From: Patescibacteria group bacterium
GTDB lineage: Bacteria; Patescibacteriota; Minisyncoccia; JAHISW01; Tagabacteraceae
Reading direction: 5' to 3'
Length of the DNA stretch: 64,000 nucleotides
Assembly: GCA_042577045.1 (NCBI GenBank)
Contig: JBHPEK010000001.1
Coordinates: forward strand, 15,173-79,172
In this document: positions 2,512 to 63,044 of the stretch, piece after piece
Position numbering within the stretch: position 1 is the stretch's first letter
Layout: every line of letters starts with the position of its first letter
Made by a program: the position numbers and the translations under genes
The notes under the pieces: model-generated
What the model was told of the DNA's origin: nothing
Databases searched by the model: none
The model's input: the letters and a program-made list of their open reading frames with translations, nothing else

Positions 2512-3708
2512 ATGCATATTCCAACACCTAGAGATTATTTTTCAGGAAAAATATCACACGGGTTTGTTTCTCTTTATACCGGAAAAGTTCTAATGGGAAT
2601 TTCGGGTGCCCTTTTGGGTCTTTTTCTCCCAATTTTTTTATATGAATTGTTTAACAAAAACTTTGCGTACACGGCTCTTTATTTCGGAATTGGATATTTG
2701 GCCTATGCAATTTGTTTATTCTTCTTTGTCCGGTTTTTAAATAGTTTCGGATTTAGAAAAGCATTAAGAGTTAGCATTCTTTTTGGTACTGGATATTATG
2801 CCACTTTTTACTTTCTAAACGAAATCAACTGGCACTTCTTGCTACCATTGTTGCTAGTAATCCTTACTATTGATAGAATTCTCTATTGGTTGCCTTATCA
2901 TGTAGATTTTGCAAAATTTACTAGCAAGCGAAACCGAAGTAAACAACTAGGGGCACTGGGTGCAACAAGACAAATAGCTGGAATTTTTATTCCTCTTCTT
3001 TCTGGTTTTATTATTAGCAAATATGGATTTGACGTCGTTTTTATAATCGCAGCTATTCTTTATTTGTCCTCTGGTATTCCCTATTTAACACTTCCTAGAA
3101 CAAGAGAAAAATTTAGCTGGAACTATATAGAAACTCTTCAAAATTTAGTTTCCAAAAAGTATAGAAAACAAATGCTCGCTTTTGCCTCTGACGGAGCAGA
3201 GACTGGCATTGCTATGATTGTCTGGCCTATTTTTATGTACCAAATTCTAAATGGTGATTATTTAAAAGTTGGGGCAATCTCCACAATTATTATTGGAATT
3301 TCTGTTACTACTCAATTGATACTCGGAAAAAAACTTGACAAAAAAACAAGCAAAAGAAAAACATTAAAATTGGCTAGTTATTTTTCAGCAGTAGGTTGGA
3401 TTATAAAAGTATTTATCGCCACAACATTTCAAATATTTATTGTGGGGGCTTTCCACAATTTAATAAGAATATTTACCAGAATGCCTTTTGATGCTCTCAC
3501 ATACGAAATAGCCGCCGATGAAGGTCATTATGTCGATGAGTTTACTGTTTTGCACGAAATAGCAATTAGTATCGGGCGAATAATCACAATAAGCCTAGCA
3601 ATTGTGATTTCTATTTTCGCTAATATCGGTTGGGTTTTTCTTTTGGCGGCTATAGCCTCTATACTTTTAAATTTTCTCCGTCCCTCCCCCGAAGATATTT
3701 CTTCCTAA
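2512..3708 (+). CDS. polytopic membrane transporter, MFS-like
   Basis: About 12 hydrophobic segments; TATAAT at 2500-2505 lies 6 nt before the ATG. Confidence 0.55.
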   Translation: MHIPTPRDYFSGKISHGFVSLYTGKVLMGISGALLGLFLPIFLYELFNKNFAYTALYFGIGYLAYAICLFFFVRFLNSFGFRKALRVSILFGTGYYATFYFLNEINWHFLLPLLLVILTIDRILYWLPYHVDFAKFTSKRNRSKQLGALGATRQIAGIFIPLLSGFIISKYGFDVVFIIAAILYLSSGIPYLTLPRTREKFSWNYIETLQNLVSKKYRKQMLAFASDGAETGIAMIVWPIFMYQILNGDYLKVGAISTIIIGISVTTQLILGKKLDKKTSKRKTLKLASYFSAVGWIIKVFIATTFQIFIVGAFHNLIRIFTRMPFDALTYEIAADEGHYVDEFTVLHEIAISIGRIITISLAIVISIFANIGWVFLLAAIASILLNFLRPSPEDISS

Positions 3709-5998
3709 TCTCTGATTCCACTTCACTTAGTGGACGTCCGTATTTCACAGCGGAAGCCTCTTTAACTTCTGACGCCACTTCTGGGCTACCTTTTTCTGGG
3801 GGAATGGTTTGAATATTGAAGGGGCGAGAAGTTTCTCCGTTGACAAGAAGTTTGGCATAAGCGTGATAGTTTGAAATGTTCATTAAGTCTTCCTCTGAAA
3901 AAACTAACTCAAAGTTTTTACTTAGAAATTCAGCATCATCTTTGCCAATTCTAAAAACAACCATAGAACCCACATTTCCAAAAACCGCCTTCCTCGTCTC
4001 CTCTTCTATTTGAGAAATAAACTGGTGGGCAATGGTTAAGTTTAGGCGATATTTACGAGCTTCTGATAAAATTCTAGAAATAGAGCTAGTGGTAACATTT
4101 TGAAATTCATCTATATATAGATAGAAGTCTTTTCTTTCACTTTCTGCTAGATCAACCCGAGCCATAGCTGACATAAAAAGCTTACCAACGACAATCATAC
4201 CCAAAAGACTTGAATTGATTTCCCCAAGCCGACCTTTAGATAAATTGACCAAAAGGATTTTTTGATTATCAATTACTTCGCGAAAATTGAAAGAAGATTT
4301 TTCTTGAGAAATAATTGGCCTCATTATTTCGTTGGCCAAAAAAGTATCAAATTTACTTGTAATGTAAGGAGCCATATTGGCAAGAGCGGCTTCACCGCCA
4401 GCTTTTTCAGCTGACTCTTCCCAGAAATTATTCACAACAACGTTCTTACTTTTAGACAATTTAAGGCGACGAAACTCTTCGTCTACCAATACTCTAGATA
4501 TTTCCAAAAGGGTGTTTCCAGATTCAGGGTCTTCCATTACTAAAAGAGTGGCATTTCTGAAATATTGCTGGAACATTGGCCCTAAACCCTCTGGCGAATC
4601 TGCAAAAAGTTTCTGAAAAATTTCCAAAAGCTCGTTGACAATAAATGTTTTCTGCTCTGGATGCGCAGGGTCGTACTCCAGCATATTTAAACCAAACGGC
4701 CTCTTAACCTCACTTGGGTCAAAATAAATTACATCATCCCACCTCTCTTCTGGTATTTGACCTAAAATATCTTGAATGTCTGAACCGTGTGGATCTATAA
4801 AACAAATCCCACGACCATCTTTAATATCTTGAACAGCCATGTTTTTAAGGAGGGCCGACTTGCCAGTGCCTGTTTGGCCAATAGTATAGAGGTGTCGTCT
4901 ACGATCTTCGGGAGAAAGGTGAATTTCTGTTTCTACTCCTCGAAAATAATTTTTCCCAATTAGCGAACCTTCTTTTGACAGGTTGGGCGGAGCTTCGGTT
5001 TGCCTATCTTTCACATAGCCAGTTTTAGGAGCAAACAACCCCTGCGATGGAAAATGAAAAATACTAGTTAACTCCTCTGTGTTTAAAAATATAGCTTTGC
5101 TTTTATCAAAAAGACGATATGAAAAGTTGTAAAATAGGTTCTTCAAACTACGCCCCTTTAAGTCGTTAGTTACAAAAGAGTTCCCTTGAGTGGAGGAATA
5201 TTGAGAAAACATACTTTTAAGTTGAGTCAAAATTTCATTGGCTCGGTTTTTTGTTTGAGCAGAAACCACTAACCGAACATTGATAGACATTACTTGTTTA
5301 GATATTTTCTTTTCCAGGAGTCTTATTATTTCCGCCCTATTTTCTTTATCCAAAGGATTGGGGTCAATAAACTCTGGCTTTGGTTCAGAGTGAATTGTGC
5401 CGCCAGTAATAACTTTCAAAAATGACTTAGTAAGACTCTCTCCTCCCGCCAAGGATGTTTTAATGGGTTCGCCGGCGTTCAACAAGCTAATTGCTTTTTC
5501 GGCATCATGATTAAAAACGTTTTTACTTGGGTCTATTAGAATCTGCACAGCAGCTCCTTCTTCCTCTCTGTTTAGTTTGGAAAAGGCATTTGCGATAACC
5601 TCTAGGGGGTTGGCACTGAGGTCTTCATAAGTTTTGACTGGCAAAATAGCTTTAGTTCTTAGAGAAATAGTGGTGCCAAGATTTACACCTTTAGTTTTGA
5701 AAACATTGTAGTCTGTAGGTTCTTCGCGAATTTCAGCGTCAGGAAAAATGGAATAGACCTGTTTTTCAAAAAAGGAAACAAACTTTCTTGGCACAGCAGC
5801 GTAGAAATTGGTTTCGTTTTCTGTGGCTGGAGAAACAATTTCCAAAACAAAATAAGGCTGTAGCTCGGACATGCCGGAATAAAATTGTTCCATAACCACA
5901 ACCAGGTCCTTAAAAGATTTCTCATTGTCTTTTTTGGCAAAAGGGAAGCCAACCTCGAGAAGAACTAGGTCTAAAGATTTTTTAAGATTTGTTTTCAT
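3659..5998 (-). CDS. P-loop ATPase of TraG/TraD/VirD4 (coupling-protein-like, DUF87-type) architecture
   Basis: Walker A GQTGTGKS, Walker B FYLYIDEFQ, C-terminal TraD/TraG-like region. Confidence 0.6.
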   Translation of the reverse strand: MKTNLKKSLDLVLLEVGFPFAKKDNEKSFKDLVVVMEQFYSGMSELQPYFVLEIVSPATENETNFYAAVPRKFVSFFEKQVYSIFPDAEIREEPTDYNVFKTKGVNLGTTISLRTKAILPVKTYEDLSANPLEVIANAFSKLNREEEGAAVQILIDPSKNVFNHDAEKAISLLNAGEPIKTSLAGGESLTKSFLKVITGGTIHSEPKPEFIDPNPLDKENRAEIIRLLEKKISKQVMSINVRLVVSAQTKNRANEILTQLKSMFSQYSSTQGNSFVTNDLKGRSLKNLFYNFSYRLFDKSKAIFLNTEELTSIFHFPSQGLFAPKTGYVKDRQTEAPPNLSKEGSLIGKNYFRGVETEIHLSPEDRRRHLYTIGQTGTGKSALLKNMAVQDIKDGRGICFIDPHGSDIQDILGQIPEERWDDVIYFDPSEVKRPFGLNMLEYDPAHPEQKTFIVNELLEIFQKLFADSPEGLGPMFQQYFRNATLLVMEDPESGNTLLEISRVLVDEEFRRLKLSKSKNVVVNNFWEESAEKAGGEAALANMAPYITSKFDTFLANEIMRPIISQEKSSFNFREVIDNQKILLVNLSKGRLGEINSSLLGMIVVGKLFMSAMARVDLAESERKDFYLYIDEFQNVTTSSISRILSEARKYRLNLTIAHQFISQIEEETRKAVFGNVGSMVVFRIGKDDAEFLSKNFELVFSEEDLMNISNYHAYAKLLVNGETSRPFNIQTIPPEKGSPEVASEVKEASAVKYGRPLSEVESEIRKKYLRGRDGENLKV

Positions 5999-8276: not shown

Positions 8277-8320
8277 TAAACTTAGCAAATACTTACGATC
8301 GTAAGTATTTGCTAAGTTTA
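8277..8320. repeat. perfect 44-nt even palindrome centred on ACGATCGT (family P)
   Basis: taaacttagcaaatacttacga|tcgtaagtatttgctaagttta. Confidence 0.9.
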
Positions 8321-13059: not shown

Positions 13060-13070
13060 CATATGTTTTT

Positions 13071-13095
13071 TCCATCGACATCCGATGTCGATGGA
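13071..13095. repeat. TCSGA-centred element, class A, perfect
   Basis: tccatcgacatc-c-gatgtcgatgga. Confidence 0.9.
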
Positions 13096-13135
13096 AATCT
13101 AAAAACTATCGGAAGAACAGTAAGCAATAAAAAAA

Positions 13136-13740: not shown

Positions 13741-13767
13741 ATCCATCGACATCCGATGTCGATGGAT
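13741..13767. repeat. TCSGA-centred element, class A, perfect 27 nt
   Basis: atccatcgacatc-c-gatgtcgatggat, 12 nt downstream of the RAYT-1 stop. Confidence 0.9.
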
Positions 13768-13779
13768 CGATAAAAGCTA

Positions 13780-14493
13780 CTAATCTAAAACGATATCTCT
13801 TATCTTTTCTAAATCAATTTCAGACCACTCTCTCAAAAACTTCTCGTAGTCTTTCTTTCCCCTAAACTGATCTGTGATTATTTCTGTTCCGGATAAAATT
13901 AAATCTTCAAAATCGTCTTGTAGATAACTTTTCAAACTAGACCATGGGTATTTAATAAGTTCTTTCTTTTTTAAATTCCAACTTTTTAAATTCCCCCCTC
14001 TCCAGTCTTTGCTGTCAATAAAATCTAATGGGTTAAGATGGATATACAAAGAAAGATGAAGAAGATAATTATTTGAATCAATATGTTTTGCTTTAAAATT
14101 ACTTTCAAAAAGAGAACCTTTCCGTTCTTGTTTGGTGTTTATATATTTTGCAATTGAAATATTACTCTTACGAAGAAAAGTACTTATTCCACCCTCCGTT
14201 AATTCTTTTACCAAAAGGTGATAGTGATTCGGCATAATTGAATAAGCAACGACATCAACAAGTTTATCACCTCTCCATGCTATATCTACTGCTTTTCTTA
14301 AGCTTACATTTTTGTAATTTCTTAAATAATCAAACGCCTTACTTGATTCTGTTGAATTTGCCAACAAAAAACATTGAGTAAGTTTATTTGCATTCTCATA
14401 GTTCTCAAATTCCGGAATATTTAATATTGTTCTGCTGTAAACGTGATAATATTCTCCTGAAACAAATTGGTCTTTTCTTATCATAATATTCAT
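13780..14493 (-). CDS. HUH/Y1 tyrosine transposase, IS200/REP-associated (RAYT-like), copy 1
   Basis: MPNHYHLLV (HUH) and LYIHLNP (catalytic Tyr) about 60 aa apart. The longer ORF to 14607 only translates the upstream hairpin. Confidence 0.8.
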   Translation of the reverse strand: MNIMIRKDQFVSGEYYHVYSRTILNIPEFENYENANKLTQCFLLANSTESSKAFDYLRNYKNVSLRKAVDIAWRGDKLVDVVAYSIMPNHYHLLVKELTEGGISTFLRKSNISIAKYINTKQERKGSLFESNFKAKHIDSNNYLLHLSLYIHLNPLDFIDSKDWRGGNLKSWNLKKKELIKYPWSSLKSYLQDDFEDLILSGTEIITDQFRGKKDYEKFLREWSEIDLEKIRDIVLD

Positions 14494-15045: not shown

Positions 15046-15068
15046 CCATCGACTTCCGATGTCGATGG
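15046..15068. repeat. TCSGA-centred element, class A hybrid (inverted copy of 14504-14526)
   Basis: ccatcgactTCCGAtgtcgatgg. Confidence 0.9.
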
Positions 15069-16213: not shown

Positions 16214-18325
16214 ATGAAGAGTTTAGTTATTGTAGAATCACCAACAAAAGCCAAAACTATTACCCGCTTCCTCGGGAAGGATTTCAAAGTGGAATCTAGT
16301 CTTGGGCACATGAGAGATTTACCGAAAGGTGAGCTTGGTGTGGATATAGAAAATAATTTTGAACCAAGATATGTTATTCCCAAAAAATCTCAAAAAAATG
16401 TAAACAAGCTAAAAAAGTTTGCCAAAGAATTTGACAAGATTATTTTAGCTACAGATGAAGACCGTGAAGGTGAAGCTATTGCTTGGCACCTACTAGAGGC
16501 ACTGGACCTCAAAAAACGAAAACCAGAAGAAATTGAAAGGATTGCATTTCATGAAATTACAAAAAGCGCTATTGAGAAAGCATTAGAAAACCCAAGGCCA
16601 ATGGATTTAAACCTTGTTGATGCTCAACAAGCCCGTAGAATTTTGGACAGATTAGTTGGCTACAAACTATCCCCTTTCTTATGGAAAAAATTAATGCGGG
16701 GATTGTCGGCTGGCCGAGTTCAATCGGTAGCCCTGCGTTTAATCATTGATAGAGAAAACGAAATAAGAAAATTTAAACCAGAGGATTATTGGTCTATTTC
16801 TGCCACTTTAATTTCTAAAAAACAAAAATTTCCTGCAGATTTAATTAAAATAGATGGTAAGCAAATTATCAAACCTGGAATTACTGATAAAAAAATAGCA
16901 GAAACAGCTTTGAAAGATTTAAAAGATGCTTCTTGGGCAATAGAATCTATAGAAAAGAAAAAACGAGAACAACAGCCCCGCCCACCATTTACCACCAGCA
17001 CCATCCAGCAAGCCGCACATAGCAACTTGTACTTCTCTGCCAAAAAGACAATGATGGTTGCCCAACAACTTTACGAAGGAATAAATCTAAAAAAAGAAGG
17101 AGGTGCATTGGGGCTAATTACCTACATGAGAACTGATTCATTTAGCGTTGCTCCATCGGCTGTTGAATCGGCAACAAAATACCTGAAAGACAACTTGGGC
17201 GAAAAATACACCCTAAGTAGTCCTCGTGTATTTAAAACAAAAAGTAAAGGCGCCCAAGAGGCACATGAAGCCATTAGGCCAACCCATCCAGAACTTAGTC
17301 CTGAATCTATTAAAGATGATTTGTCCGCCGATCAATTTAAACTGTATGATTTAATTTGGAGAAGGTTTATGGCAACTCAAATGCCAAATGCAATCTTCGA
17401 CAACACAACAATAAACACACTAGCTGGAAAATATTTATTTAGATCGCATGGATCAGTTTTAAAATTTGATGGTTTTCTGAAAATATATTTTACCCCGACC
17501 AAAGCGTCGGGGCCATCTAAAATGGAAGACAATATCTTGCCAGAGGTATCCAAGGAAGATGTTGTTTCTGCCAAAGAAGTAATATCTGAAGCGCATCAAA
17601 CTCAACCACCAGCAAGATACAACGATGCTTCTCTAGTTAAAATTCTTGAAAAACATGAAATTGGCCGACCTTCTACTTATGCTCAAATAATTTCCACTAT
17701 TCAAAGCAGAAATTATGTGGAAAAAGATGAAGCAAAAAGATTTATTCCTACCGAAATAGGCGAGAAAGTAAATAAAATAATGGTAGATCATTTCCCAGAT
17801 ATTGTGGATGTAGATTTTACAGCAGAACTGGAAGACAAACTAGATAAAGTTGCGGAAGGTAAAATTAAATACAAACCACTAATCAAAACATTCTATATTC
17901 CATTTGAGAAAAACCTAGAAGAAAAATACAAAACAGTAAAAGAAGAAGACCTAACAGAGGAAACTGATGAAGTTTGTGAAATATGTAGCAAGCCAATGAT
18001 AATTAAATACGGAAGATTTGGTAAATTTATGGCTTGCTCTGGTTTTCCAGATTGCAAAAACACTAAAAGTTTATCAGCAAAAGAGTTAAATATAAAATGT
18101 CCCCTTTGTAAAGAAAAAGGAGATGATGGCGATGTTATTTCTAGAAAAACAAAAAAGGGGAGGATATTTTTTGGATGTTCTGGCTGGCCAAAATGTAAAT
18201 TTGCCACTTGGAATAAACCAACTGGCGAACTGTGCCCAGAATGTAAAGAGCCAACCATGGAGATAAAGAATGAAATAAAATGCTCCAATAAAGAATGCAC
18301 CTACTCCATAGAAAAACCCCACTGA
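16214..18325 (+). CDS. topA: DNA topoisomerase I with C-terminal zinc ribbons
   Basis: TOPRIM (VIVESPTKAKTI, DEDREGE), active-site region ITYMRTDS, four Cys4 fingers. Confidence 0.95.
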   Translation: MKSLVIVESPTKAKTITRFLGKDFKVESSLGHMRDLPKGELGVDIENNFEPRYVIPKKSQKNVNKLKKFAKEFDKIILATDEDREGEAIAWHLLEALDLKKRKPEEIERIAFHEITKSAIEKALENPRPMDLNLVDAQQARRILDRLVGYKLSPFLWKKLMRGLSAGRVQSVALRLIIDRENEIRKFKPEDYWSISATLISKKQKFPADLIKIDGKQIIKPGITDKKIAETALKDLKDASWAIESIEKKKREQQPRPPFTTSTIQQAAHSNLYFSAKKTMMVAQQLYEGINLKKEGGALGLITYMRTDSFSVAPSAVESATKYLKDNLGEKYTLSSPRVFKTKSKGAQEAHEAIRPTHPELSPESIKDDLSADQFKLYDLIWRRFMATQMPNAIFDNTTINTLAGKYLFRSHGSVLKFDGFLKIYFTPTKASGPSKMEDNILPEVSKEDVVSAKEVISEAHQTQPPARYNDASLVKILEKHEIGRPSTYAQIISTIQSRNYVEKDEAKRFIPTEIGEKVNKIMVDHFPDIVDVDFTAELEDKLDKVAEGKIKYKPLIKTFYIPFEKNLEEKYKTVKEEDLTEETDEVCEICSKPMIIKYGRFGKFMACSGFPDCKNTKSLSAKELNIKCPLCKEKGDDGDVISRKTKKGRIFFGCSGWPKCKFATWNKPTGELCPECKEPTMEIKNEIKCSNKECTYSIEKPH

Positions 18326-18344: not shown

Positions 18345-18380
18345 TTTAGCATTTACTTACGATCGTAAGTAAATGCTAAA
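18345..18380. repeat. perfect 36-nt palindrome centred on ACGATCGT (family P)
   Basis: tttagcatttacttacga|tcgtaagtaaatgctaaa. Confidence 0.9.
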
Positions 18381-18438: not shown

Positions 18439-18472
18439 TATACACTTACCAACGATCGTAGATAAGTGTATA
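18439..18472. repeat. family P palindrome (centre AACGATCGTA)
   Basis: tatacactta...taagtgtata arms. Confidence 0.75.
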
Positions 18473-24264: not shown

Positions 24265-24678
24265 CTATATTTCATCTTCAGTAAACACTTTAATATTATT
24301 CTTTTTTAGAATTTTAGCAAATACGCCATCACCGTCAATTAATTTTCCAGAAAAAGTGCCATCATAGACCTTGCCAGAACCACAAGATGGAGATTTTGAT
24401 TTTATAATTGCTTCATCGCAATTTGCAAATAACGCAATTTTTAATGCTTCTTTTGCCCCTCTTTCGAATTGAGTGGTAACATCTTCTCCTGTTTTTGTAA
24501 AAACTTTATCTTTCTTTTGTTCAGCAGGAGTTCTTGGTGTTGTTAATCCACCCAATTGTTCTGGGCAGACAGGAATTGCTTTACCTTGTTTAACTAACTC
24601 AACAACTTTCTGGCAAGGTCTTGCATCATCATCCCACCTACATTTTATTCCTGCTAAACAGGCACTGACAATTTTCAT
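24265..24678 (-). CDS. DUF523 family protein (TudS-like Fe-S thiouracil desulfidase family)
   Basis: MKIVSACLAGIKCRWDDD N-terminus and conserved Cys pattern. Confidence 0.65.
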   Translation of the reverse strand: MKIVSACLAGIKCRWDDDARPCQKVVELVKQGKAIPVCPEQLGGLTTPRTPAEQKKDKVFTKTGEDVTTQFERGAKEALKIALFANCDEAIIKSKSPSCGSGKVYDGTFSGKLIDGDGVFAKILKKNNIKVFTEDEI

Positions 24679-24827: not shown

Positions 24828-25523
24828 TCACCCAACAACTGCCTCTACTTCTGCTACTTTATTTTTTATCTCTAATATTTTCGAAAGTTCGGGAAACAAT
24901 GTGCCATTTTGCAATCCCATAAGTAAGTCGTCTAAGCAAGAAAATTCGGGATAGGGGTGTAGGTCATAAATTTTTCCTTCAAATTCCACGCCATTCAAAA
25001 TAATTGGCAACTCATCAAGCACATATGAAGATAATTTTTCTAACTTACTTAAAGCTAATCCACTTGCTCTTGAGCCTAAATTCTCTTGAACTATCTTTAT
25101 TATAAAATCATGGAATTGATTATTTTGTTTAAATTCATTAAGAAAAATTTTGATTTTGTCTTTATAATATTGAGACTTTTTTACGTCATCCCACCTGCCA
25201 ATTTTAATAAAAGATTGTTTTTCCTTTGGCAAGCTACGCACTATTTCTTCTATAGACTTTTCAATTTCCATGCCCTTTCTTAATGTAACTTGTAATGCTC
25301 TTTCAGAACTATAACCATCAAAAACTTCGTAGTTTATCGCGTGGACTGTATCTGCTATCAGAACCAAAACATCATCTTTGGTATTTTCTAAAGCCCAGCG
25401 AAGATATGCTCTTATGTTTTCTTTAGAAAAATATTTATTCCCCAAACTTATGCCCACAAAAATATTAAACTTTTTTGATTTAATATCTTGTTCCGTACAA
25501 TTCAAGAAAGACTTGATTATCAT
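24828..25523 (-). CDS. tRNA-dependent cyclodipeptide synthase (CDPS, AlbC family)
   Basis: VGISLGNKYFSKENIRAYLRWA matches recalled AlbC IGISAGNSYFSQKNTVMLLQWA (catalytic Ser). YVLDELP matches YVLAEAP (Tyr/Glu). About 230 aa, the family size. Confidence 0.75.
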   Translation of the reverse strand: MIIKSFLNCTEQDIKSKKFNIFVGISLGNKYFSKENIRAYLRWALENTKDDVLVLIADTVHAINYEVFDGYSSERALQVTLRKGMEIEKSIEEIVRSLPKEKQSFIKIGRWDDVKKSQYYKDKIKIFLNEFKQNNQFHDFIIKIVQENLGSRASGLALSKLEKLSSYVLDELPIILNGVEFEGKIYDLHPYPEFSCLDDLLMGLQNGTLFPELSKILEIKNKVAEVEAVVG

Positions 25524-25650: not shown

Positions 25651-25697
25651 CCACCCTGGGCACAAAATAAAAATCAAATTAAAATTAAACAAAATAC

Positions 25698-25727
25698 ACC
25701 ACTTATCCACGATCGTAAGTAAGTGGT
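25698..25727. repeat. family P palindrome (centre ACGATCGT), imperfect
   Basis: accactta-tcc-acgatcgt-aag-taagtggt. Confidence 0.7.
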
Positions 25728-25871
25728 ATTATGTATTGTGTTTTTATTTCTAACATTGCTAGTTTGGAAAAACACCGAACTGAAAACTAAACCACTTATC
25801 CCGTGTTATGTGATGTAACCAGAAATTTCTTTTCCTTATTATTCTTTTTTCGATAATTTATTTTAGGGCTT

Positions 25872-26276: not shown

Positions 26277-26461
26277 ATGTATTTAGATTAAATTATTTCC
26301 TTACCAAGATAATATCACAAACCATAGTCGACCTTAAACAAATTGCCAAAAAAATCTTAAAAAAATAATAAAGAAATTTCTGGCTATTTCATATAGTTCG
26401 TTATTATACATACTATTACTTATACTGTATCACTTTGTAATTGGTGATACAATGTAATACA

Positions 26462-28498
26462 ATGTCAACCATGAAATATCACATCATCACATACGGCTGT
26501 GGAGCCAATCATGCCGATTCAGAAAGGATCGAAGCGAAGCTTCACGCACTTGGACACACAAAAGCCGCCAACAAGAAGGTGGCTAATTTGATAGTGATTA
26601 ATTCTTGCTCGGTGCGCAAGTCAGCTATGGATCGTCTTTATGCACAAATAAACAAACTAAAAACCAAGAAAAAGAAAGTAATTTTGGCAGGATGCATCTT
26701 AGAAAAAGACCTAAAAAATTTGAAAGACAAGGTAAGTGAAGTTTGGCACCCAGATGAGTACTTCGACTTAATGCCAATTTATGCAGATGAAGTTGGTGTG
26801 TCTGTCCCCATTATGACGGGGTGCAACAACTTTTGCACATATTGTGCTGTTCCTTACACCCGTGGACGAGAAAAATCTCGCCCAGCAAAAGATATTGTCG
26901 ATGAAATAAAGAAACTTGTGGCAAGCCCCGCCGGGCGGGATAAAAAAGAAATTTGGCTATTGGGTCAAAACGTAAACAGTTACCGATCTGGTAAAACAAA
27001 CTTTCCAAAACTTTTACAGAAAATAGATAAAATACCCGGCAAGTTTTGGGTTCGTTTTATTTCCCCACACCCAAAAGACTTCTCGATTGAATTAATAAAA
27101 ACAATTAAAAAATGTGAAAAAATTACTGAATACATAAACGTGCCTGTTCAGTCTGGAGACAATGAAATACTAAAAAGAATGAATAGAAACTACACGCGCG
27201 AACACTATATAAAACTTGTAAACAGAATTAGAAAAGAAATACCAGACGCATCTATATCCACAGATACCATTGTTGGCTTCCCTGGGGAAACAAAAAAACA
27301 ATTCTTGAATACTAAAGATTTATACAAAAAATTAAAATTTGATATGGCATTTCTAGCTGAATACTCTCCTCGTCCGGGGACTTTTTCAGCAATGATGATG
27401 AAAGACAACGTAAGCCATACCGAAAAAGAAAAACGAAAAAAAGAACTAAATGACATTTTAACCAAAACTGCACTAGAGAATAATAAAAAATATATTGGAA
27501 AAACAGTAGAAGTTTTAAATGGACGAACTCGCACCAATAAGCTGGTTACCCTACACGATACCGAGTATCGTGTAGGGCCAAGTGAATTCTTGAATGTAAA
27601 AATTACAGGAGCTGAATCTTGGAGACTAAAAGGGGAAATTGTTAAAAAAATAGTAGTTGTGCTTGGGCCTACTGCTTCTGGAAAAAGTGGTTTAGCTGTT
27701 GAGATAGCTCAAAAATTCCCTTCTGAGATTATCTCTGCAGATTCTAGACAAATTTACAAAGGAATGAATATCGGTAGTGGAAAAATAACAAAAAAGGAAA
27801 TGAAAGGAATAAAACATCATCTTCTTAACATAGTTAGCCCAAGAAAAATATATTCGGCAGGAGAATTCAAAAAAGAAGCTCAAAAATGTATCGAAGGAAT
27901 ATTGAAACAAGACAAAACGCCTATCATTTGTGGTGGAACAGGTTTTTATATCAACTCGCTTTTGGGTGGAAACATTGCCGAAGTAGAACCAGATTGGAAC
28001 TTGAGAAAAAAACTTGAGGAAAAAACTACAAAACAACTTTTTGGCCAACTGAAAAAACTAAAACCCCAAAGAGCAAAAAATATTGATTCCCAAAACAAAC
28101 GCCGACTAATACGGGCTATTGAAATAGCCAAATCTGCATCGAAGTCGGACTTCGACGCAATATCGAAGTCCGACTTCGATGTGTTGTATTTAGGAATTAA
28201 AAAAGACGGAGAAAAGCTAAAAAAAATAATTGATAAGAGGGTGGACGAAATGATTGAAGAAGGATTAGAAAAGGAAGTAAAAAAACTTGTTAAAAAATAT
28301 GGGTGGACGAAGACTTTAAAAAATACAATTGGATACCAAGAATGGAAAGAAGACAATTCAGAAGAAAAGATAAAGGCCCATTCACACCAATACGCAAAAA
28401 GACAAATAACTTGGTTTAAGAAATATGCACCGAAAACACACTGGCTTGGCAACAAAAAAGAAGCATTAAAATTAGTAAGAAACTTTTTAAAGAATTAA
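26462..28498 (+). CDS. miaB-miaA: fused MiaB (radical SAM methylthiotransferase) - MiaA (tRNA dimethylallyltransferase)
   Basis: UPF0004 N-domain, CNNFCTYC radical SAM cluster and TRAM domain, followed by a P-loop GPTASGKS and ADSRQIYKGMNIGS. Start is at 26462 or 26471. Confidence 0.85.
   Translation: MSTMKYHIITYGCGANHADSERIEAKLHALGHTKAANKKVANLIVINSCSVRKSAMDRLYAQINKLKTKKKKVILAGCILEKDLKNLKDKVSEVWHPDEYFDLMPIYADEVGVSVPIMTGCNNFCTYCAVPYTRGREKSRPAKDIVDEIKKLVASPAGRDKKEIWLLGQNVNSYRSGKTNFPKLLQKIDKIPGKFWVRFISPHPKDFSIELIKTIKKCEKITEYINVPVQSGDNEILKRMNRNYTREHYIKLVNRIRKEIPDASISTDTIVGFPGETKKQFLNTKDLYKKLKFDMAFLAEYSPRPGTFSAMMMKDNVSHTEKEKRKKELNDILTKTALENNKKYIGKTVEVLNGRTRTNKLVTLHDTEYRVGPSEFLNVKITGAESWRLKGEIVKKIVVVLGPTASGKSGLAVEIAQKFPSEIISADSRQIYKGMNIGSGKITKKEMKGIKHHLLNIVSPRKIYSAGEFKKEAQKCIEGILKQDKTPIICGGTGFYINSLLGGNIAEVEPDWNLRKKLEEKTTKQLFGQLKKLKPQRAKNIDSQNKRRLIRAIEIAKSASKSDFDAISKSDFDVLYLGIKKDGEKLKKIIDKRVDEMIEEGLEKEVKKLVKKYGWTKTLKNTIGYQEWKEDNSEEKIKAHSHQYAKRQITWFKKYAPKTHWLGNKKEALKLVRNFLKN
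28136..28158. repeat. TCSGA-centred element, class D, inside the miaA part (in frame)
   Basis: gcatcgaagtc-g-gacttcgacgc. Confidence 0.8.
28160..28182. repeat. TCSGA-centred element, class D, inverted partner, in frame
   Basis: atatcgaagtc-c-gacttcgatgt; with 28136-28158 it encodes SKSDFDAISKSDFD. Confidence 0.8.
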
Positions 28499-35372: not shown

Positions 35373-35421
35373 ATCTGTGTACTGAGAGAGATGTTGTCTC
35401 TCTCAGGAGCTTCCAACAGAT
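35373..35421. repeat. composite palindrome: class B outer arms with nested CTGAGAGAGA inner arms
   Basis: atctgtgtactgagagagatgttgtctctctcaggagcttccaacagat; 6 nt downstream of the RAYT-2 stop. Confidence 0.8.
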
Positions 35422-35427
35422 ACCAAA

Positions 35428-36081
35428 TTATTCTATTATGAACTCTTTTATGTCTTCGAACCTGCTCTTACTTTTGGTTTTGCAGCTTTTTAGAAATTCT
35501 TCATATTCGTCGTAATTTTTTAAAGGAGTCCATTTGTATTCTTCAAGAAATTTTTTTGCCTTACGCCAATCTTTTAAGCCCTCCTCTTTCCACCTAGGCT
35601 CAAAAAGATCTAGCGGGTTTAGATAAATATATTGTTTTAAATAATTTAAATATTCATCTTTATCTATTAGAACTGCCTTGAACTTTCCCTGAAACAAAAC
35701 TCCACTTCTCTCATATTTTTGATTAAAATAATTAGTGTAGCCAGTTCCCAGTTTTTGCATAAAACTGGAAATTCCGCCATCTTCCAATTGTTCAAGAATT
35801 AAATGAAAATGATTAGGCATTAAACAAGAGCCATAAAATTTAACTACGGACTCTCTGTCCTCTTTTTTTACTATGTGGGAAGTCGGACTTCCCACAGATA
35901 CCGCTCCTTCGCTAACACTTATACGACGAAACAGATTAATAGAAGAGTTCTTATCATTAAAATCTCTTAAGCTAAAAAGGAAGCGATGGTAGTCTTTGTC
36001 GTCCATAAAAACCTTACGTTTGTCTGTCCCACGGTTAAAAACGTGATAAAAATGGTTATTTGCAAATTGAGGTTTTTTCAT
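35428..36081 (-). CDS. HUH/Y1 tyrosine transposase, IS200/RAYT-like, copy 2
   Basis: MPNHFHLIL (HUH), QYIYLNP (Tyr). Start is at 36081 (MKKPQF...) or 36108. Confidence 0.8.
   Translation of the reverse strand: MKKPQFANNHFYHVFNRGTDKRKVFMDDKDYHRFLFSLRDFNDKNSSINLFRRISVSEGAVSVGSPTSHIVKKEDRESVVKFYGSCLMPNHFHLILEQLEDGGISSFMQKLGTGYTNYFNQKYERSGVLFQGKFKAVLIDKDEYLNYLKQYIYLNPLDLFEPRWKEEGLKDWRKAKKFLEEYKWTPLKNYDEYEEFLKSCKTKSKSRFEDIKEFIIE
35874..35896. repeat. class B element inside the RAYT-2 CDS (in frame, encodes VGSPTSH)
   Basis: tgtgggaagtc-g-gacttcccaca followed by gatacc. Confidence 0.85.
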
Positions 36082-36107
36082 TACTTTTATTATATATACA
36101 TATTTCA

Positions 36108-36134
36108 TCTGTGGGAAGTCCGACTTCCCACAGA
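36108..36134. repeat. TCSGA-centred element, class B, perfect 27 nt
   Basis: tctgtgggaagtc-c-gacttcccacaga. Confidence 0.9.
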
Positions 36135-36580: not shown

Positions 36581-37801
36581 TTATTTTATGGAAGAAATAT
36601 TTTTTAATTTGTTAATAATATCTGGAAGAACTTTCAAAACATAATCTATGTCTTCTTTTGTGTTTTCCTTTCCCAAGCTGAACCGAACCGAACCATGCAC
36701 GTGCTCATGGCATCGGCCAATCGCTTTTATAACGTGTGAGGGTTCTAAACTATCCGAACTACACGCCGAACCGGTTGAGGAGGCTATTCCTTTGGCATCA
36801 AGGTATAAAATAATAGATTCGCCCTCTACTCCATGAAAAGAAATATTTATATTATTTGGAAGTCGGGCGTCTAAAGATCCGTTAATTTTGGAGTCGGGAA
36901 AAGTTTTTGAAAGATTTTCTATAAAATAATTACGCAATTCAATAAGACGAGCAGATTCTTTTTCTCTTTCCTTTTGGGCAACCTCTAGCGCCTCAGCAAA
37001 GCCAACAATGGCAGGAATATTTTCTGTTCCTGGACGAAGACCAGATTCTTGCCCACCACCGTAAAGTATTGGCTCAATTTTTAATCCTCTCTTTTTGTAA
37101 AGGCACCCAACTCCTTTGGGCCCATAAATTTTAGAACCGTTTAAAGACATTAGATCTATTCCCAACTTGGCAACATTTAAATCTAGAAAGGACGGGGTTT
37201 GAATAGCGTCGGTATGAAAATATGGTGTTTCAACTCCGTGTTCTTTTCGATGAGCACGAATTATTTTAGCAATCCTAGAGATTGGTTGAATGGTTCCTAT
37301 TTCATTATTGGCATACATAATAGAAACCAAGATCGTCTCTTTTCGAAGTTCTTTTTTTAATTCTTCTAAATCCACCAGTCCATCTTTATCTACATCTAAA
37401 TAACTAACTTCGAATCCCTCTTTCTCAAGTTTCTCGCAAGCATGAAGGACCGCGTGATGTTCTATACTGGAAGTAATGATATGTGGGAAGTTGGACTTCG
37501 CACGCTTGTTGTGGGAAGTCCTGAGAGAGATCTGATCTCTCTCAGTGCCCACAGAACCAAAAATGGCCAGATTGTCACTCTCAGTACCACTAGAAGTAAA
37601 AATAATTTCGTCTGGACGTGCACTCAAAATTTCGGACACTTTATGTCGAGCGTCAGAGATGGCTTTTTTGGCAACTCGACCCTCCTCATAAATTGAAGAG
37701 GCATTTCCAAAATCCACAGACCAAAAAGGCTCCATTGCCTTTTTAACAGCTGGATCTAGTTGGGTAGTTGCTGCATGATCTAAATATATTCTTTTCATCA
37801 T
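36581..37801 (-). CDS. nifS: cysteine desulfurase (NifS/IscS) carrying an in-frame repeat insertion
   Basis: GTESDN, PLP Lys region SLNGSKIYGPKG, catalytic SSTGSACSS. Confidence 0.9.
   Translation of the reverse strand: MMKRIYLDHAATTQLDPAVKKAMEPFWSVDFGNASSIYEEGRVAKKAISDARHKVSEILSARPDEIIFTSSGTESDNLAIFGSVGTERDQISLRTSHNKRAKSNFPHIITSSIEHHAVLHACEKLEKEGFEVSYLDVDKDGLVDLEELKKELRKETILVSIMYANNEIGTIQPISRIAKIIRAHRKEHGVETPYFHTDAIQTPSFLDLNVAKLGIDLMSLNGSKIYGPKGVGCLYKKRGLKIEPILYGGGQESGLRPGTENIPAIVGFAEALEVAQKEREKESARLIELRNYFIENLSKTFPDSKINGSLDARLPNNINISFHGVEGESIILYLDAKGIASSTGSACSSDSLEPSHVIKAIGRCHEHVHGSVRFSLGKENTKEDIDYVLKVLPDIINKLKNISSIK
37482..37504. repeat. degenerate class B element inside nifS
   Basis: tgtgggaagtTggacttcGcacG. 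Confidence 0.7.
37510..37553. repeat. composite class B/inner-arm element inside nifS
   Basis: tgtgggaagtcctgagagagatctgatctctctcagtgcccaca. Confidence 0.85.
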
Positions 37802-40704: not shown

Positions 40705-41415
40705 TTATTTACTATGTGAAAAACGTTTCCTGCTGACTCCTGCCAACCCCAACAATCCGACACCGAAAAGCACCATTGTTGCCGGTTCTGGAATCGGATC
40801 TGAAGGATTCGAGGTCTGAATAAAATCAAATGCCATGGTTGAGCCGGCTGGTGACAAAATTGTAAGCGCTACCCTATCTGCGGAATTGAAGTTTACACCG
40901 GAATAGTCACCAAATGCGAACGGAAAAGCAAGAGTCGTTCCACCTGGAGATGAAGATAAGACCTGCGACATAATTCCAGAGACAGCACCGTCGAAGGCCT
41001 CAATGGAAACCGTTCCATCTGTTGCGCCAAAATTGAAAGCTTCCAGATAAAACCCGTCGTCACTGGGAGTTGAAGCAAGATCAAAATCTGTAAAACCATC
41101 CCATGTAAAAATCGCCGTACTTGCCACACCTGCTTCATTTGAAATTGTTGCTAATCCTCCACTTACGGAAAGCGTTGAATCCTCAAACATGGGGCTAAAA
41201 ACTGCAGAAGTTACTTCAAGGCTCATGTCTCTGTCGGTCCCGATAATATCATCTATATCTATATCAACGACGTTAAGGGTTGTCGCTCCTCCACCCAAAG
41301 AATCTGACACAGACCCAACATCATCGAAAGAATCGATAAGGGTTGCTCGCGAAACAGGCACCACAAAAAGAAACAGAATTATCACTACAAACATTACCGC
41401 AATTCTTGCTTTCAT
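40705..41415 (-). CDS. PEP-CTERM-anchored secreted protein
   Basis: Signal peptide; C-terminal PIPEPATMVLFGVGLLGLAGVSRKR (PEP motif, TM helix, basic tail). Confidence 0.75.
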   Translation of the reverse strand: MKARIAVMFVVIILFLFVVPVSRATLIDSFDDVGSVSDSLGGGATTLNVVDIDIDDIIGTDRDMSLEVTSAVFSPMFEDSTLSVSGGLATISNEAGVASTAIFTWDGFTDFDLASTPSDDGFYLEAFNFGATDGTVSIEAFDGAVSGIMSQVLSSSPGGTTLAFPFAFGDYSGVNFNSADRVALTILSPAGSTMAFDFIQTSNPSDPIPEPATMVLFGVGLLGLAGVSRKRFSHSK

Positions 41416-41512: not shown

Positions 41513-41539
41513 TCTGTGGGAAGTCCGACTTCCCACAGA
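41513..41539. repeat. TCSGA-centred element, class B, perfect
   Basis: tctgtgggaagtc-c-gacttcccacaga followed by tacaaaaaa. Confidence 0.9.
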
Positions 41540-41552
41540 TACAAAAAACTAT

Positions 41553-46883: not shown

Positions 46884-46931
46884 ATCTGTGGGAAGTCCTG
46901 AGAGAGATAGTATCTCTCTCAGGACACAGAT
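46884..46931. repeat. composite class B/inner-arm palindrome
   Basis: atctgtgggaagtcctgagagagatagtatctctctcaggacacagat followed by accaaaaaa. Confidence 0.85.
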
Positions 46932-46944
46932 ACCAAAAAACACC

Positions 46945-46984
46945 CTCCCACTATGAAAACCTTACTTGGTTTTCATGGTGGGAG
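46945..46984. repeat. 17-bp-stem hairpin of another arm type
   Basis: ctcccactatgaaaacc-ttactt-ggttttcatggtgggag (1 mismatch). Confidence 0.75.
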
Positions 46985-47008
46985 TCGAAATATGCCTTAG
47001 TTTCAACT

Positions 47009-47031
47009 ACGTCGACGTCCGACGTCGACGT
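47009..47031. repeat. TCSGA-centred element, class C, perfect
   Basis: acgtcgacgtc-c-gacgtcgacgt, preceded by tttcaact. Confidence 0.9.
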
Positions 47032-47036
47032 TTATA

Positions 47037-47056
47037 CGACATCGGATGTCGATGGA
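47037..47056. repeat. class A element with truncated left arm
   Basis: cgacaTCGGAtgtcgatgga. Confidence 0.7.
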
Positions 47057-56171: not shown

Positions 56172-56196
56172 TGCGTCGACGTCCGACGTCGACGCA
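56172..56196. repeat. TCSGA-centred element, class C, perfect
   Basis: tgcgtcgacgtc-c-gacgtcgacgca. Confidence 0.9.
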
Positions 56197-57378: not shown

Positions 57379-57405
57379 CTGCGTCGACGTCCGACGTCGA
57401 CGCAG
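57379..57405. repeat. TCSGA-centred element, class C, perfect 27 nt
   Basis: ctgcgtcgacgtc-c-gacgtcgacgcag. Confidence 0.9.
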
Positions 57406-60377: not shown

Positions 60378-60488
60378 ATGTATTTATCTAAACGTGGCAA
60401 AAAATTAAACAGGGCTGTTTGGATTTTCATCAGTATTTTGGCAATCATCGGAATGGTGGGTTACCTCATTGTACCACTTTTCTACTAA
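60378..60488 (+). CDS. possible 36-aa membrane peptide
   Basis: TATAAT at 60363-60368; MYLSKRGKKLNRAVWIFISILAIIGMVGYLIVPLFY. Confidence 0.35.
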   Translation: MYLSKRGKKLNRAVWIFISILAIIGMVGYLIVPLFY

Positions 60489-63017: not shown

Positions 63018-63044
63018 TCTGTGGGAAGTCGGACTTCCCACAGA
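63018..63044. repeat. TCSGA-centred element, class B, perfect
   Basis: tctgtgggaagtc-g-gacttcccacaga followed by tac. Confidence 0.9.

Follow-up and report, generated by a model that had tools for sequence, protein, structure and literature searches.

A probable REPIN-like doublet of palindromes, translated within the miaA gene of a Patescibacteria genome with RAYT-like transposase genes

A 64-kb stretch of DNA from a Patescibacteria group bacterium (64,000 nt of contig JBHPEK010000001.1, referred to here as the window) contains two adjacent palindromes, at positions 28136-28182, that are read in frame within the MiaA half of a miaB-miaA fusion gene. This doublet is probably an intragenic, translated pair of palindromes of the repetitive extragenic palindromic (REP) type, arranged as an inverted dimer similar to a REPIN (REP doublet forming hairpins), and part of a system in this genome that resembles those of REPs and REP-associated tyrosine transposases (RAYTs). 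Since the palindromes belong to a genome-wide REP-like family with its own transposase genes nearby, the doublet is most likely a tolerated passenger of miaA. The finding that each of the Y1 transposase genes in the window is flanked by related palindromes (of classes B and C), which is the defining feature of REP/REPIN systems, supports the REPIN-like reading.

The doublet is an inverted repeat read in frame in a surface loop of MiaA

The host gene and the parts of the doublet are the following (no strand is assigned to palindromes, here or in the second list):

26441..28498, + strand: miaB-miaA fusion open reading frame (ORF) hosting the doublet, 685 aa; UPF0004 and Radical_SAM at residues 12-294, IPPT at residues 437-661 (Pfam)
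28136..28177, + strand: codons of MiaA-half residues 166-179, a loop between helix 153-165 and strand 179-186
28139-28155: copy 1 (D1), perfect core, TCGAAGTC-G-GACTTCGA
28135..28159: copy 1 (D1), extended, TGCATCGAAGTC-G-GACTTCGACGCA; 25-nt palindrome with one mismatch, encodes (S)ASKSDFDA
28162..28180: copy 2 (D2), ATCGAAGTC-C-GACTTCGAT; perfect 19-nt palindrome, encodes ISKSDFD
28137..28181: whole inverted doublet; 19-nt arms, 7-nt spacer at 28156-28162 (CGCAATA)

A first-pass annotation, made from the sequence alone, had described two 'class D' elements with opposite centres at 28136-28182, a REPIN-like doublet translated in the MiaA half of the fusion. Direct reading of the window confirmed both elements and their positions letter for letter: the first is gca-TCGAAGTC-g-GACTTCGA-cgc, centred at 28147, and the second ata-TCGAAGTC-c-GACTTCGA-tgt, centred at 28171, 24 nt after the first. 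A repeat search agreed with the opposite (G and C) centres and the doublet arrangement, since the two 19-nt arms (28137-28155 and 28163-28181) proved 100% complementary. The reading frame was also as described: position 28136 is the first codon base of ORF 26441-28498(+), the peptide produced is ASKSDFDA-ISKSDFDV, and it lies within the IPPT domain. The last two codons of copy 2 (TTC GAT) specify the conserved F-D at the entry of a MiaA β-strand.

The doublet is not a chance product, as indicated by three types of evidence. The pattern TCGAAGTCSGACTTCGA, with up to three mismatches, occurs seven times in the window, against 0.10 times expected from shuffles. There are 19 odd perfect palindromes whose arms reach 8 nt or more, against 2.1 ± 1.6 in 100 dinucleotide shuffles. 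Finally, the 81-nt doublet region is predicted to fold as RNA into a single 20-bp hairpin (-36.5 kcal/mol, z = -7.5), the predicted value for DNA being -24.2 kcal/mol (z = -8.6).

The two units can also be aligned directly, with 18 of 24 positions alike, in frame and with a period of 24, which is what slippage would generate by duplicating a 24-nt (8-codon) unit in tandem, with a later point change at one centre and the palindromy being incidental. However, aligned as inverted copies the two units agree perfectly along 19 nt, and their G and C centres then need no additional mutation. A tandem duplication would moreover lengthen the linker, the length of which is unchanged, and all close doublets with shared arm sequence, exact or near, have opposite centres (7/7). 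This origin is therefore very improbable.

Similar inverted doublets recur elsewhere. In the window and in a survey of 163 miaA orthologs (loci L001-L162 plus the window), like palindromes with opposite centres 21-24 nt apart were found not only in the miaA doublet but also at 47020/47044 of the window, three times in L035, and in L014 and L011. The doublet in the miaA linker of L035 is a copy, spacer included, of a ∼40-nt doublet present at 18018-18056 of the same locus; this is the clearest evidence of the doublet being a repeat unit.

Modelling of the protein, a check that the first-pass annotation had proposed, placed the doublet-encoded residues in a low-confidence loop. The AlphaFold model of the MiaA half had a mean predicted local distance difference test score (pLDDT) of 90.9 and matched the E. 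coli MiaA-tRNA complex 3FOZ with a template modelling (TM) score of 0.86. Residues 166-179 were its lowest-confidence stretch (pLDDT 74 and 65 in 10-residue blocks), following helix 153-165 (RRLIRAIEI...) and preceding strand 179-186 (DVLYLGIK). According to the model, the site corresponds to a variable surface linker that connects the last helix of the insertion domain to the next core β-strand. Its in-frame, stop-free translation in a poorly conserved surface segment is as expected for elements of the Rickettsia palindromic element (RPE) type. Directly upstream of the linker, the codons for the conserved RAIEIA (28114-28129) give rise to a small palindrome of their own, GGCTATT-GA-AATAGCC, which is coding-driven and recurs in many orthologs.

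Some library or assembly errors can yield palindromes, although nothing specific points to a sequencing or assembly artefact here. The doublet is in frame and within a long contig, the ORF is intact, all residues invariant across 34 MiaA orthologs are retained, and the same element types are found in independent assemblies from different projects and assemblers. An artefact is hence scarcely credible. The fusion itself seems to be a lineage trait rather than an assembly error, because MiaB-like N-terminal extensions are also present in three homologs, namely P0002 (Radical_SAM), P0021 (TRAM) and P0003 (unannotated). Among the results of a protein search, none was identical to the MiaA half, though the neighbouring transposase is in the NCBI set.

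Related palindromes are dispersed in the window and flank two transposase genes

The window (37% G+C) contains 17 palindromes centred on TC-S-GA with arms of at least 6 nt; element counts depend on the thresholds chosen, and class names other than D were coined in this analysis. Ten of the 17 lie outside ORFs, that is, in 12.5% of the window, an approximately 10-fold enrichment to which the miaA doublet is one of the intragenic exceptions. Class A (TGCGTCGACGTC-S-GACGTCGACGCA) has four copies besides D1, while class B (CCATCGACATC-S-GATGTCGATGG) and class C (TCTGTGGGAAGTC-S-GACTTCCCACAGA) have four copies each, and the copies within a class are near-identical; further single variants carry CAACTAT...ATAGTTG outer stems. 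The classes differ mainly by paired changes adjoining a common (R)TC-S-GA(Y) centre. A speculative alternative would link the TCNGA centre to restriction-modification, through Hpy188I-type sites. The window and all fetched loci together have 56 odd palindromes whose arms are 9 nt or longer; GTC was the innermost arm triplet in 19 of them, and related elements were also found in several other Patescibacteria assemblies. The transposase genes and the elements of classes A to C are the following:

13780..14493, - strand: RAYT-like gene 1, 237 aa, starts MNIMIRK; HUH motif H90-Y91-H92, tyrosine motif Y150-IHLNP
35428..36108, - strand: RAYT-like gene 2, 226-aa ORF; PF01797, 36.1 bits
1496..1520: class A element, TGCGTCGACGTC-G-GACGTCGACGCA
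47008..47051: class A followed by a short class B; centres 47020 (C) and 47044 (G), 24 nt apart and opposite
56172..56196: class A element, in the window the one most closely related to D1
57380..57404: intergenic class A element
13069..13097: intergenic class B element
13741..13767: class B element, ATCCATCGACATC-C-GATGTCGATGGAT; 12 nt downstream of the gene 1 stop codon
14504..14526: class B element, CCATCGACATC-G-GAAGTCGATGG, one mismatch; 10 nt upstream of the gene 1 ATG, centre opposite to that of the downstream copy
15046..15068: class B element, one mismatch; intergenic, upstream of dprA
35375..35420: composite, a class G palindrome enclosed by class C halves; immediately downstream of gene 2
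35872..35898: class C element, one mismatch; inside the 5′ coding part of gene 2
36108..36134: class C element, TCTGTGGGAAGTC-C-GACTTCCCACAGA; abuts the 5′ end of gene 2
41513..41539: intergenic class C element
63018..63044: class C element separating two convergent genes

Compared with the 25-nt class A consensus TGCGTCGACGTCSGACGTCGACGCA, D1 shows three mismatches, two of which form a compensatory pair. D2 shares its 20-nt core, TATCGAAGTCCGACTTCGAT, letter for letter with a REP located inside a RAYT-like gene of another genome (L168:661-689). From these matches, copy 1 is a class A variant, and copy 2 has the core of a REP present in and beside a RAYT-like gene of a related genome.

A Pfam scan of all window ORFs identified two IS200-like Y1 transposase genes. 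Gene 1 scored 27.4 bits against Y1_Tnp (PF01797; cut-off 23), and its residues H90-Y91-H92 and Y150 were invariant in 26 homologs. Its profile matched the HUH region of ISDra2 TnpA with an E value of 0.003. A single-sequence PDB search with the transposase gave no meaningful match. The top PDB fold match for its AlphaFold model (pLDDT 89) was 4ER8_A, the E. coli RAYT-REP complex (E = 1.3e-6); the transposases of IS608, IS200 and ISDra2 followed at ∼5e-4. The gene 1 product is identical to an NCBI protein annotated as 'transposase [Patescibacteria group bacterium]' and has 694 homologs of ∼230-240 aa. Gene 2 is 31% identical to gene 1 (tblastn E = 1.6e-27). A candidate third paralog, P0122, is 72% identical to gene 1 and was not seen in the window by tblastn; it possibly lies on the same contig as the gene 1 protein (P0121), both being listed with a longest contig of 88,130 bp.

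Gene 1 sits between class B copies of opposite centres; gene 2 is bracketed by class C elements and has one more within its coding region. No tnpB gene adjoins either of them. Judging from this and from their low mutual identity (31%), the two genes do not belong to a multi-copy insertion sequence (IS).

Six homologous transposase loci from other Patescibacteria were inspected (L163, L166, L168, L171, L172 and L173), and flanking palindromes were present at five of them (L166, L168, L171, L172 and L173). The flanks in L172 are TCGACGTC-S-GACGTCGA, with a class A core and opposite centres. L168 comprises two transposase genes, one bracketed by identical ACGACGAAGCG-T-CGCTTCGTCGT palindromes and the other by CAACTAT... 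palindromes; the latter gene contains CAACTATCGAAGTC-G-GACTTCGATAGTTG, which includes the exact class D 19-mer. The gene 1 homolog of L166 is 69% identical and syntenic (ParB-TopA-DprA-RAYT-SerRS-PGA_cap-PMT), an arrangement that argues for gene 1 having been inherited vertically at a fixed locus rather than being an active IS.

Two other sources of these sequences were considered and discarded. The class D 19-mer gave one match among viral contigs, in a contig of 58% GC without a RAYT homolog, which is consistent with chance. Contamination by the PacBio adaptor does not explain the GAGAGAGAT/ATCTCTCTC palindromes: their arms come in the opposite order, they lack the adaptor loop, and a conserved gene contains one copy in frame.

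The linker that hosts the doublet is a palindrome hot spot in MiaA orthologs

Palindromes with arms of at least 7 nt and loops of up to 4 nt were mapped in the 163 orthologs and placed on the residues of the query. Residues 165-179, which represent 5% of the length, hold 21 of the 77 miaA palindromes, distributed in 18 of the 163 loci. The MiaA linker, which carries different palindromes in these 18 loci, is thus a palindrome hot spot; the palindromes are perfect, unrelated in sequence, and have arms of 7-19 nt. Many are net insertions of 3-20 codons, and others are length-neutral (L018, L063 and the window). Even related genomes differ in the palindrome they carry: L054, L141 and L128 (72-83% identical) have differing palindromes at one linker site, as do L108 and L014 (74% identical). 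No palindrome indels were found between the near-identical locus pairs fetched. Secondary clusters of palindromes lie near residues 85, 123, 130-136, 149 and 232-244, and coincide with other length-variable loops.

In L068, the linker has 58 codons and contains two direct copies of CAGAGATC-T-GATCT(C/A)TG, 36 nt apart and read as QRSDLC...QRSDLC. The two members of this direct doublet have the same centre, in contrast to the inverted doublets found elsewhere.

The recurrence of differing perfect palindromes at the linker, including those of the two groups of related orthologs just mentioned, together with the very stable hairpin predicted for the doublet, could be explained by a selected cis-acting hairpin. 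This might be a structure in the miaA mRNA (for RNase processing, for translational pausing between domains, or for MiaA autoregulation as a stem-loop mimic) or a DNA site. Nevertheless, about 89% of the orthologs have no linker palindrome, and where there is one its position, frame, arm length and number all vary, which makes such a function unlikely. The same element types are also found in other genes and mainly between genes, the secondary hot spots fall in other variable loops, and an Rfam scan of the window, in which only four tRNAs reached the gathering score, gave no structured-RNA match for the doublet. A selected hairpin is therefore quite improbable. Selection at the peptide level was ruled out, as the frame in which such palindromes are translated varies from gene to gene and all three frames are used; this is the case for the GTC-S-GAC palindromes of Patescibacteria genes in L011, L050 and L003.

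The L011 example is an in-frame inverted doublet with a GTC-S-GAC centre, at 4820-4860, in a 771-aa ORF (PHVGHVDSTCPTCG). Those in L050 (6469-6489) and L003 (1852-1872), also in frame, encode FRKSDFR in a 453-aa ORF and LRCPTPK in the MiaB/TRAM part of another MiaB-MiaA fusion, respectively.

Origin of the doublet

Several results weigh against the doublet belonging to a REP/RAYT-like system. Measured from query residue 152 to residue 190, the window linker has 38 codons, which is the mode of the 163 orthologs (37-39 codons in 109 cases), and its alignment with the closest orthologs is free of gaps and reveals no net insertion. The 3′ end of copy 2 (F-D-V-L) fits the conserved strand-entry motif [YF]-[DEN]-[VI]-L, in which Y/F was present in 143 of 158 orthologs and D/E/N at the next position in 106 of 158, followed by V/I and then L. 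Closer relatives that could provide an empty site were not found among proteins, GTDB genomes or metagenome contigs, the best MiaA identity being 59-60%, all in Patescibacteria. No further class D copies exist in the window beyond the two in miaA, and no RAYT-like gene in the window is flanked by class D. The best NCBIfam match of gene 1, the REP-associated tyrosine transposase NF047646, reached 39.8 bits, below the equivalog cut-off of 80, and palindromes do not flank the transposase locus of L163. The REP super-families described by Di Nocera et al. in 2013 (PMC3733652) are marked by an unpaired GTAG or CGTC end tag; the flanks of all classes lack a conserved GTAG, and CGTC occurs only within the paired stem of class A and D1. 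Finally, although a tolerated passenger is the most likely status of the doublet, the same loop bears such palindromes in many related bacteria.

These data also bear on two points of the first-pass annotation. The 47-nt insert it implied is not supported, since the linker has the length of that of the closest orthologs and the alignment with MiaA orthologs that it had suggested shows no gap there. It had further considered that conservation at the protein level in MiaA proteins lacking the palindromes would speak against its proposal. Such conservation was found for part of copy 2, namely FDVL and the KSQFDV of the palindrome-free ortholog L002, which lies at the copy 2 site with 13 of 18 bases identical; copy 1 stands in place of the usual KTGKPVPxL.

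A doublet of this kind could also arise by template switching in place (quasi-palindrome correction), with no mobile element involved. The ancestral K-S-x-F-D codons would seed a short palindrome, fold-back copying would perfect it and overwrite the upstream linker codons with an inverted copy, and the resemblance to the dispersed classes would be due to convergence. The change was indeed length-neutral, a 19-nt stretch of copy 1 is exactly the reverse complement of copy 2, and the right arm of copy 2 overlaps the conserved F-D, where L002 has similar codons and no palindrome. In L018, the right arm of the length-neutral linker palindrome resembles the codons of relatives, which points to an in-place templated origin for at least some linker palindromes. 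In addition, the centre bases of class C flip independently of the flanks, as spacer inversion predicts according to the relevant part of PMC8604942. However, the likeness to the dispersed classes contradicts a purely local origin: D1 matches a 25-nt class A element, outer stem included, and the D2 core is that of a RAYT-associated REP in another genome. The 15-mer CGAAGTC-G-GACTTCG is found at the same linker position in L001 (52% identical), and the L066 linker has it too, at a different place and in a different frame; the linker doublet of L035 was demonstrably copied from a dispersed unit, and many other linker palindromes are net insertions. We consider a purely local origin to be unlikely.

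The preferred explanation is still that of a REP/RAYT-like system. The ribosome would read through the doublet in the variable surface linker of MiaA, and the doublet would persist because this loop tolerates almost any sequence, without having a function for MiaA. By analogy with the E. coli RAYT and IS200/IS605, the Y1 enzymes may mobilise or maintain the palindromes via single-stranded hairpin intermediates; the homology to 4ER8 and the flanking arrangement would be in line with such an action. As the linker length is unchanged, only two routes of arrival are envisaged. The doublet might have been inserted, with the subsequent loss of the old linker of ∼16 codons, or the old linker might have been replaced from a template, by template switching or by conversion from a REP copy elsewhere, with the ancestral TTC-GAT (F-D) codons serving as the anchor. 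The perfect arms and the flipping class C centres would fit ongoing template switching within the hairpin, which could also keep the two copies exact complements.

A more far-reaching possibility, which we put forward tentatively and regard as rather unlikely, is that the palindromes of a previously undescribed REP/RAYT-like system of Patescibacteria, besides inserting between genes, repeatedly overwrite particular protein loops at constant length. The linker between the insertion domain and the core of MiaA would then be a preferred, re-used landing site, receiving different palindromes in related genomes. This would amount to a templated rewriting of coding sequence, for which microhomology with conserved codons might act as a guide, or which might be selected because of the hairpin it forms in the miaA message.

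Other palindromes and genes in the window

Nested composites were observed at 37510-37555, 46885-46932 and 35375-35420, in which a class G palindrome (CTGAGAGAGAT-N-ATCTCTCTCAG) occupies the centre of a class C element (TGTGGGAAGTC and GAC..CCCACAGA on either side); one of them continues the reading frame of a cysteine desulfurase gene (ORF 36581-37801). Such nesting suggests the insertion of one element into the loop of another. A tail, ACAGATACC(A)AAAA, follows several palindromes of different classes (1520-1545, 35412-35425, 46925-46945 and 41539-41548), so the repeat units may extend beyond the palindromes. Another family, of even palindromes, has a CGATCG centre (..ACTTACGA|TCGTAAGT..) and is found at 8277-8320, 18345-18380, 18439-18472 and 25676-25749, in intergenic positions, for example just after topA. 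Motifs like ACTTACGAT flank the RAYT homologs in L171 and L173.

The miaB-miaA gene contains a third in-frame palindrome, of another family that is common to lepA:

27549..27577: CCCTACACGATAC-CGA-GTATCGTGTAGGG, encodes TLHDTEYRVG

The lepA gene (ORF 60485-62311, minus strand) harbours a perfect 50-nt palindrome at 61716-61765, in frame, with 24-nt arms and a 2-nt centre, which falls after the GTP_EFTU domain (residues 6-180) and before domain II (residues 214-283). Both arms form hairpins of their own, ACACGA...TCGTGT, which are related to the 27549-27577 palindrome. The 50-nt palindrome has the appearance of a net insertion and of a REPIN-like doublet that belongs to a second family.

Other genes in the window are unusual for a small Patescibacteria genome. 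Located at 24828-25523, 24265-24678, 3659-5998 and 40705-41415, they include a cyclodipeptide synthase (CDPS), a 2-thiouracil desulfurase family protein, a TraG/VirD4-like coupling protein and a PEP-CTERM protein.

Comparison with known systems

A translated intragenic REP dimer is a known kind of feature, because in-frame intragenic REPs and REP dimers have been described elsewhere. In the sections of PMC3733652 relevant here, they are reported for Opitutus terrae, Rickettsia (RPE-4, RPE-6) and others, with truB and aminoacyl-tRNA synthetase genes among the host genes. The same source gives 20-30 residues as the coding length of intragenic dimers or grouped repeats and 43-82 as that of larger clusters, and reports that the recB gene of Xanthomonas carries different REPs at about one site. 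The first-pass annotation therefore went too far in calling a palindrome pair inside a tRNA-modification enzyme unusual, since cases are known in other phyla and in tRNA-related enzymes too.

The literature searched contained no description of a REP/RAYT-like system in Patescibacteria. What appears to be new is the phylum, the design of the elements (no GTAG/CGTC tag, perfect odd palindromes, a shared centre), the clade of ∼235-aa transposases, the length-neutral replacement and the MiaA hot spot. In a field in which the spread of REPs is still called poorly understood, to judge from the part of PMC8266576 that deals with it, this case adds a REP/RAYT-like system from an uncultured phylum with reduced genomes, and palindromes that are perfect, often coding, and bear a loop-proximal signature instead of a 5′ tag. 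The MiaA linker, in which about one in nine orthologs has palindromes, either as insertions or length-neutral, offers a natural series for comparing transposition with templated replacement. As regards annotation, odd low-complexity peptide repeats in Patescibacteria proteins, such as SKSDFD, PHVGHV and STCPTCG, are explained as read-through of DNA palindromes.

The Patescibacteria elements resemble the REP/REPIN and RAYT systems of Proteobacteria (Bertels & Rainey 2011, PMC3116915, PMC3337134; Di Nocera et al. 2013, PMC3733652; 4ER8) in being short, dispersed and mostly intergenic palindromes, and in forming inverted dimers able to fold into one long hairpin. They also resemble them in the presence, for classes B and C, of a Y1/HUH gene flanked by cognate palindromes at a syntenic locus, and in having several families per genome; the modelled fold of the transposase is likewise closest to that of the E. 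coli RAYT in 4ER8. They differ from REPs and REPINs in being perfect, with a single central base and the shared (R)TC-S-GA(Y) centre instead of an unpaired GTAG/CGTC tag, in the very short spacers of the doublets (7-10 nt), and in the notable share of copies located in coding sequence. The transposases differ from RAYTs in their C-terminal extension and their scores below the NCBIfam RAYT cut-off.

Like the intragenic REPs and the Rickettsia RPE-1, -4 and -6 elements covered in PMC3733652, the miaA palindromes are translated in frame in a housekeeping gene, as a dimer. Unlike RPE-type insertions, the 47 nt in miaA replace the linker without a change in length, and their 3′ end encodes conserved residues. 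The coding palindromes of Nematomorpha mitochondria, as outlined in PMC6649704, are also perfect inverted repeats within genes with both arms translated, but they reach up to 284 bp, are mitochondrial and have no transposase, whereas the miaA elements are of 17-25 nt and belong to a dispersed family. The stem-loop arrays of TIGR-Tas systems (PMC12045711), which are tandem, have box C/D motifs and adjoin a Tas gene, are unrelated. Finally, short template-switch or quasi-palindrome mutations, in the aspects treated in PMC5453318 and PMC8604942, share with the miaA doublet the length-neutral swap of a sequence for the reverse complement of its neighbour, the homogenising of arms and the inversion of the spacer. 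Such mutations are purely local, while the elements described here are identical at many loci and are associated with Y1 transposases.

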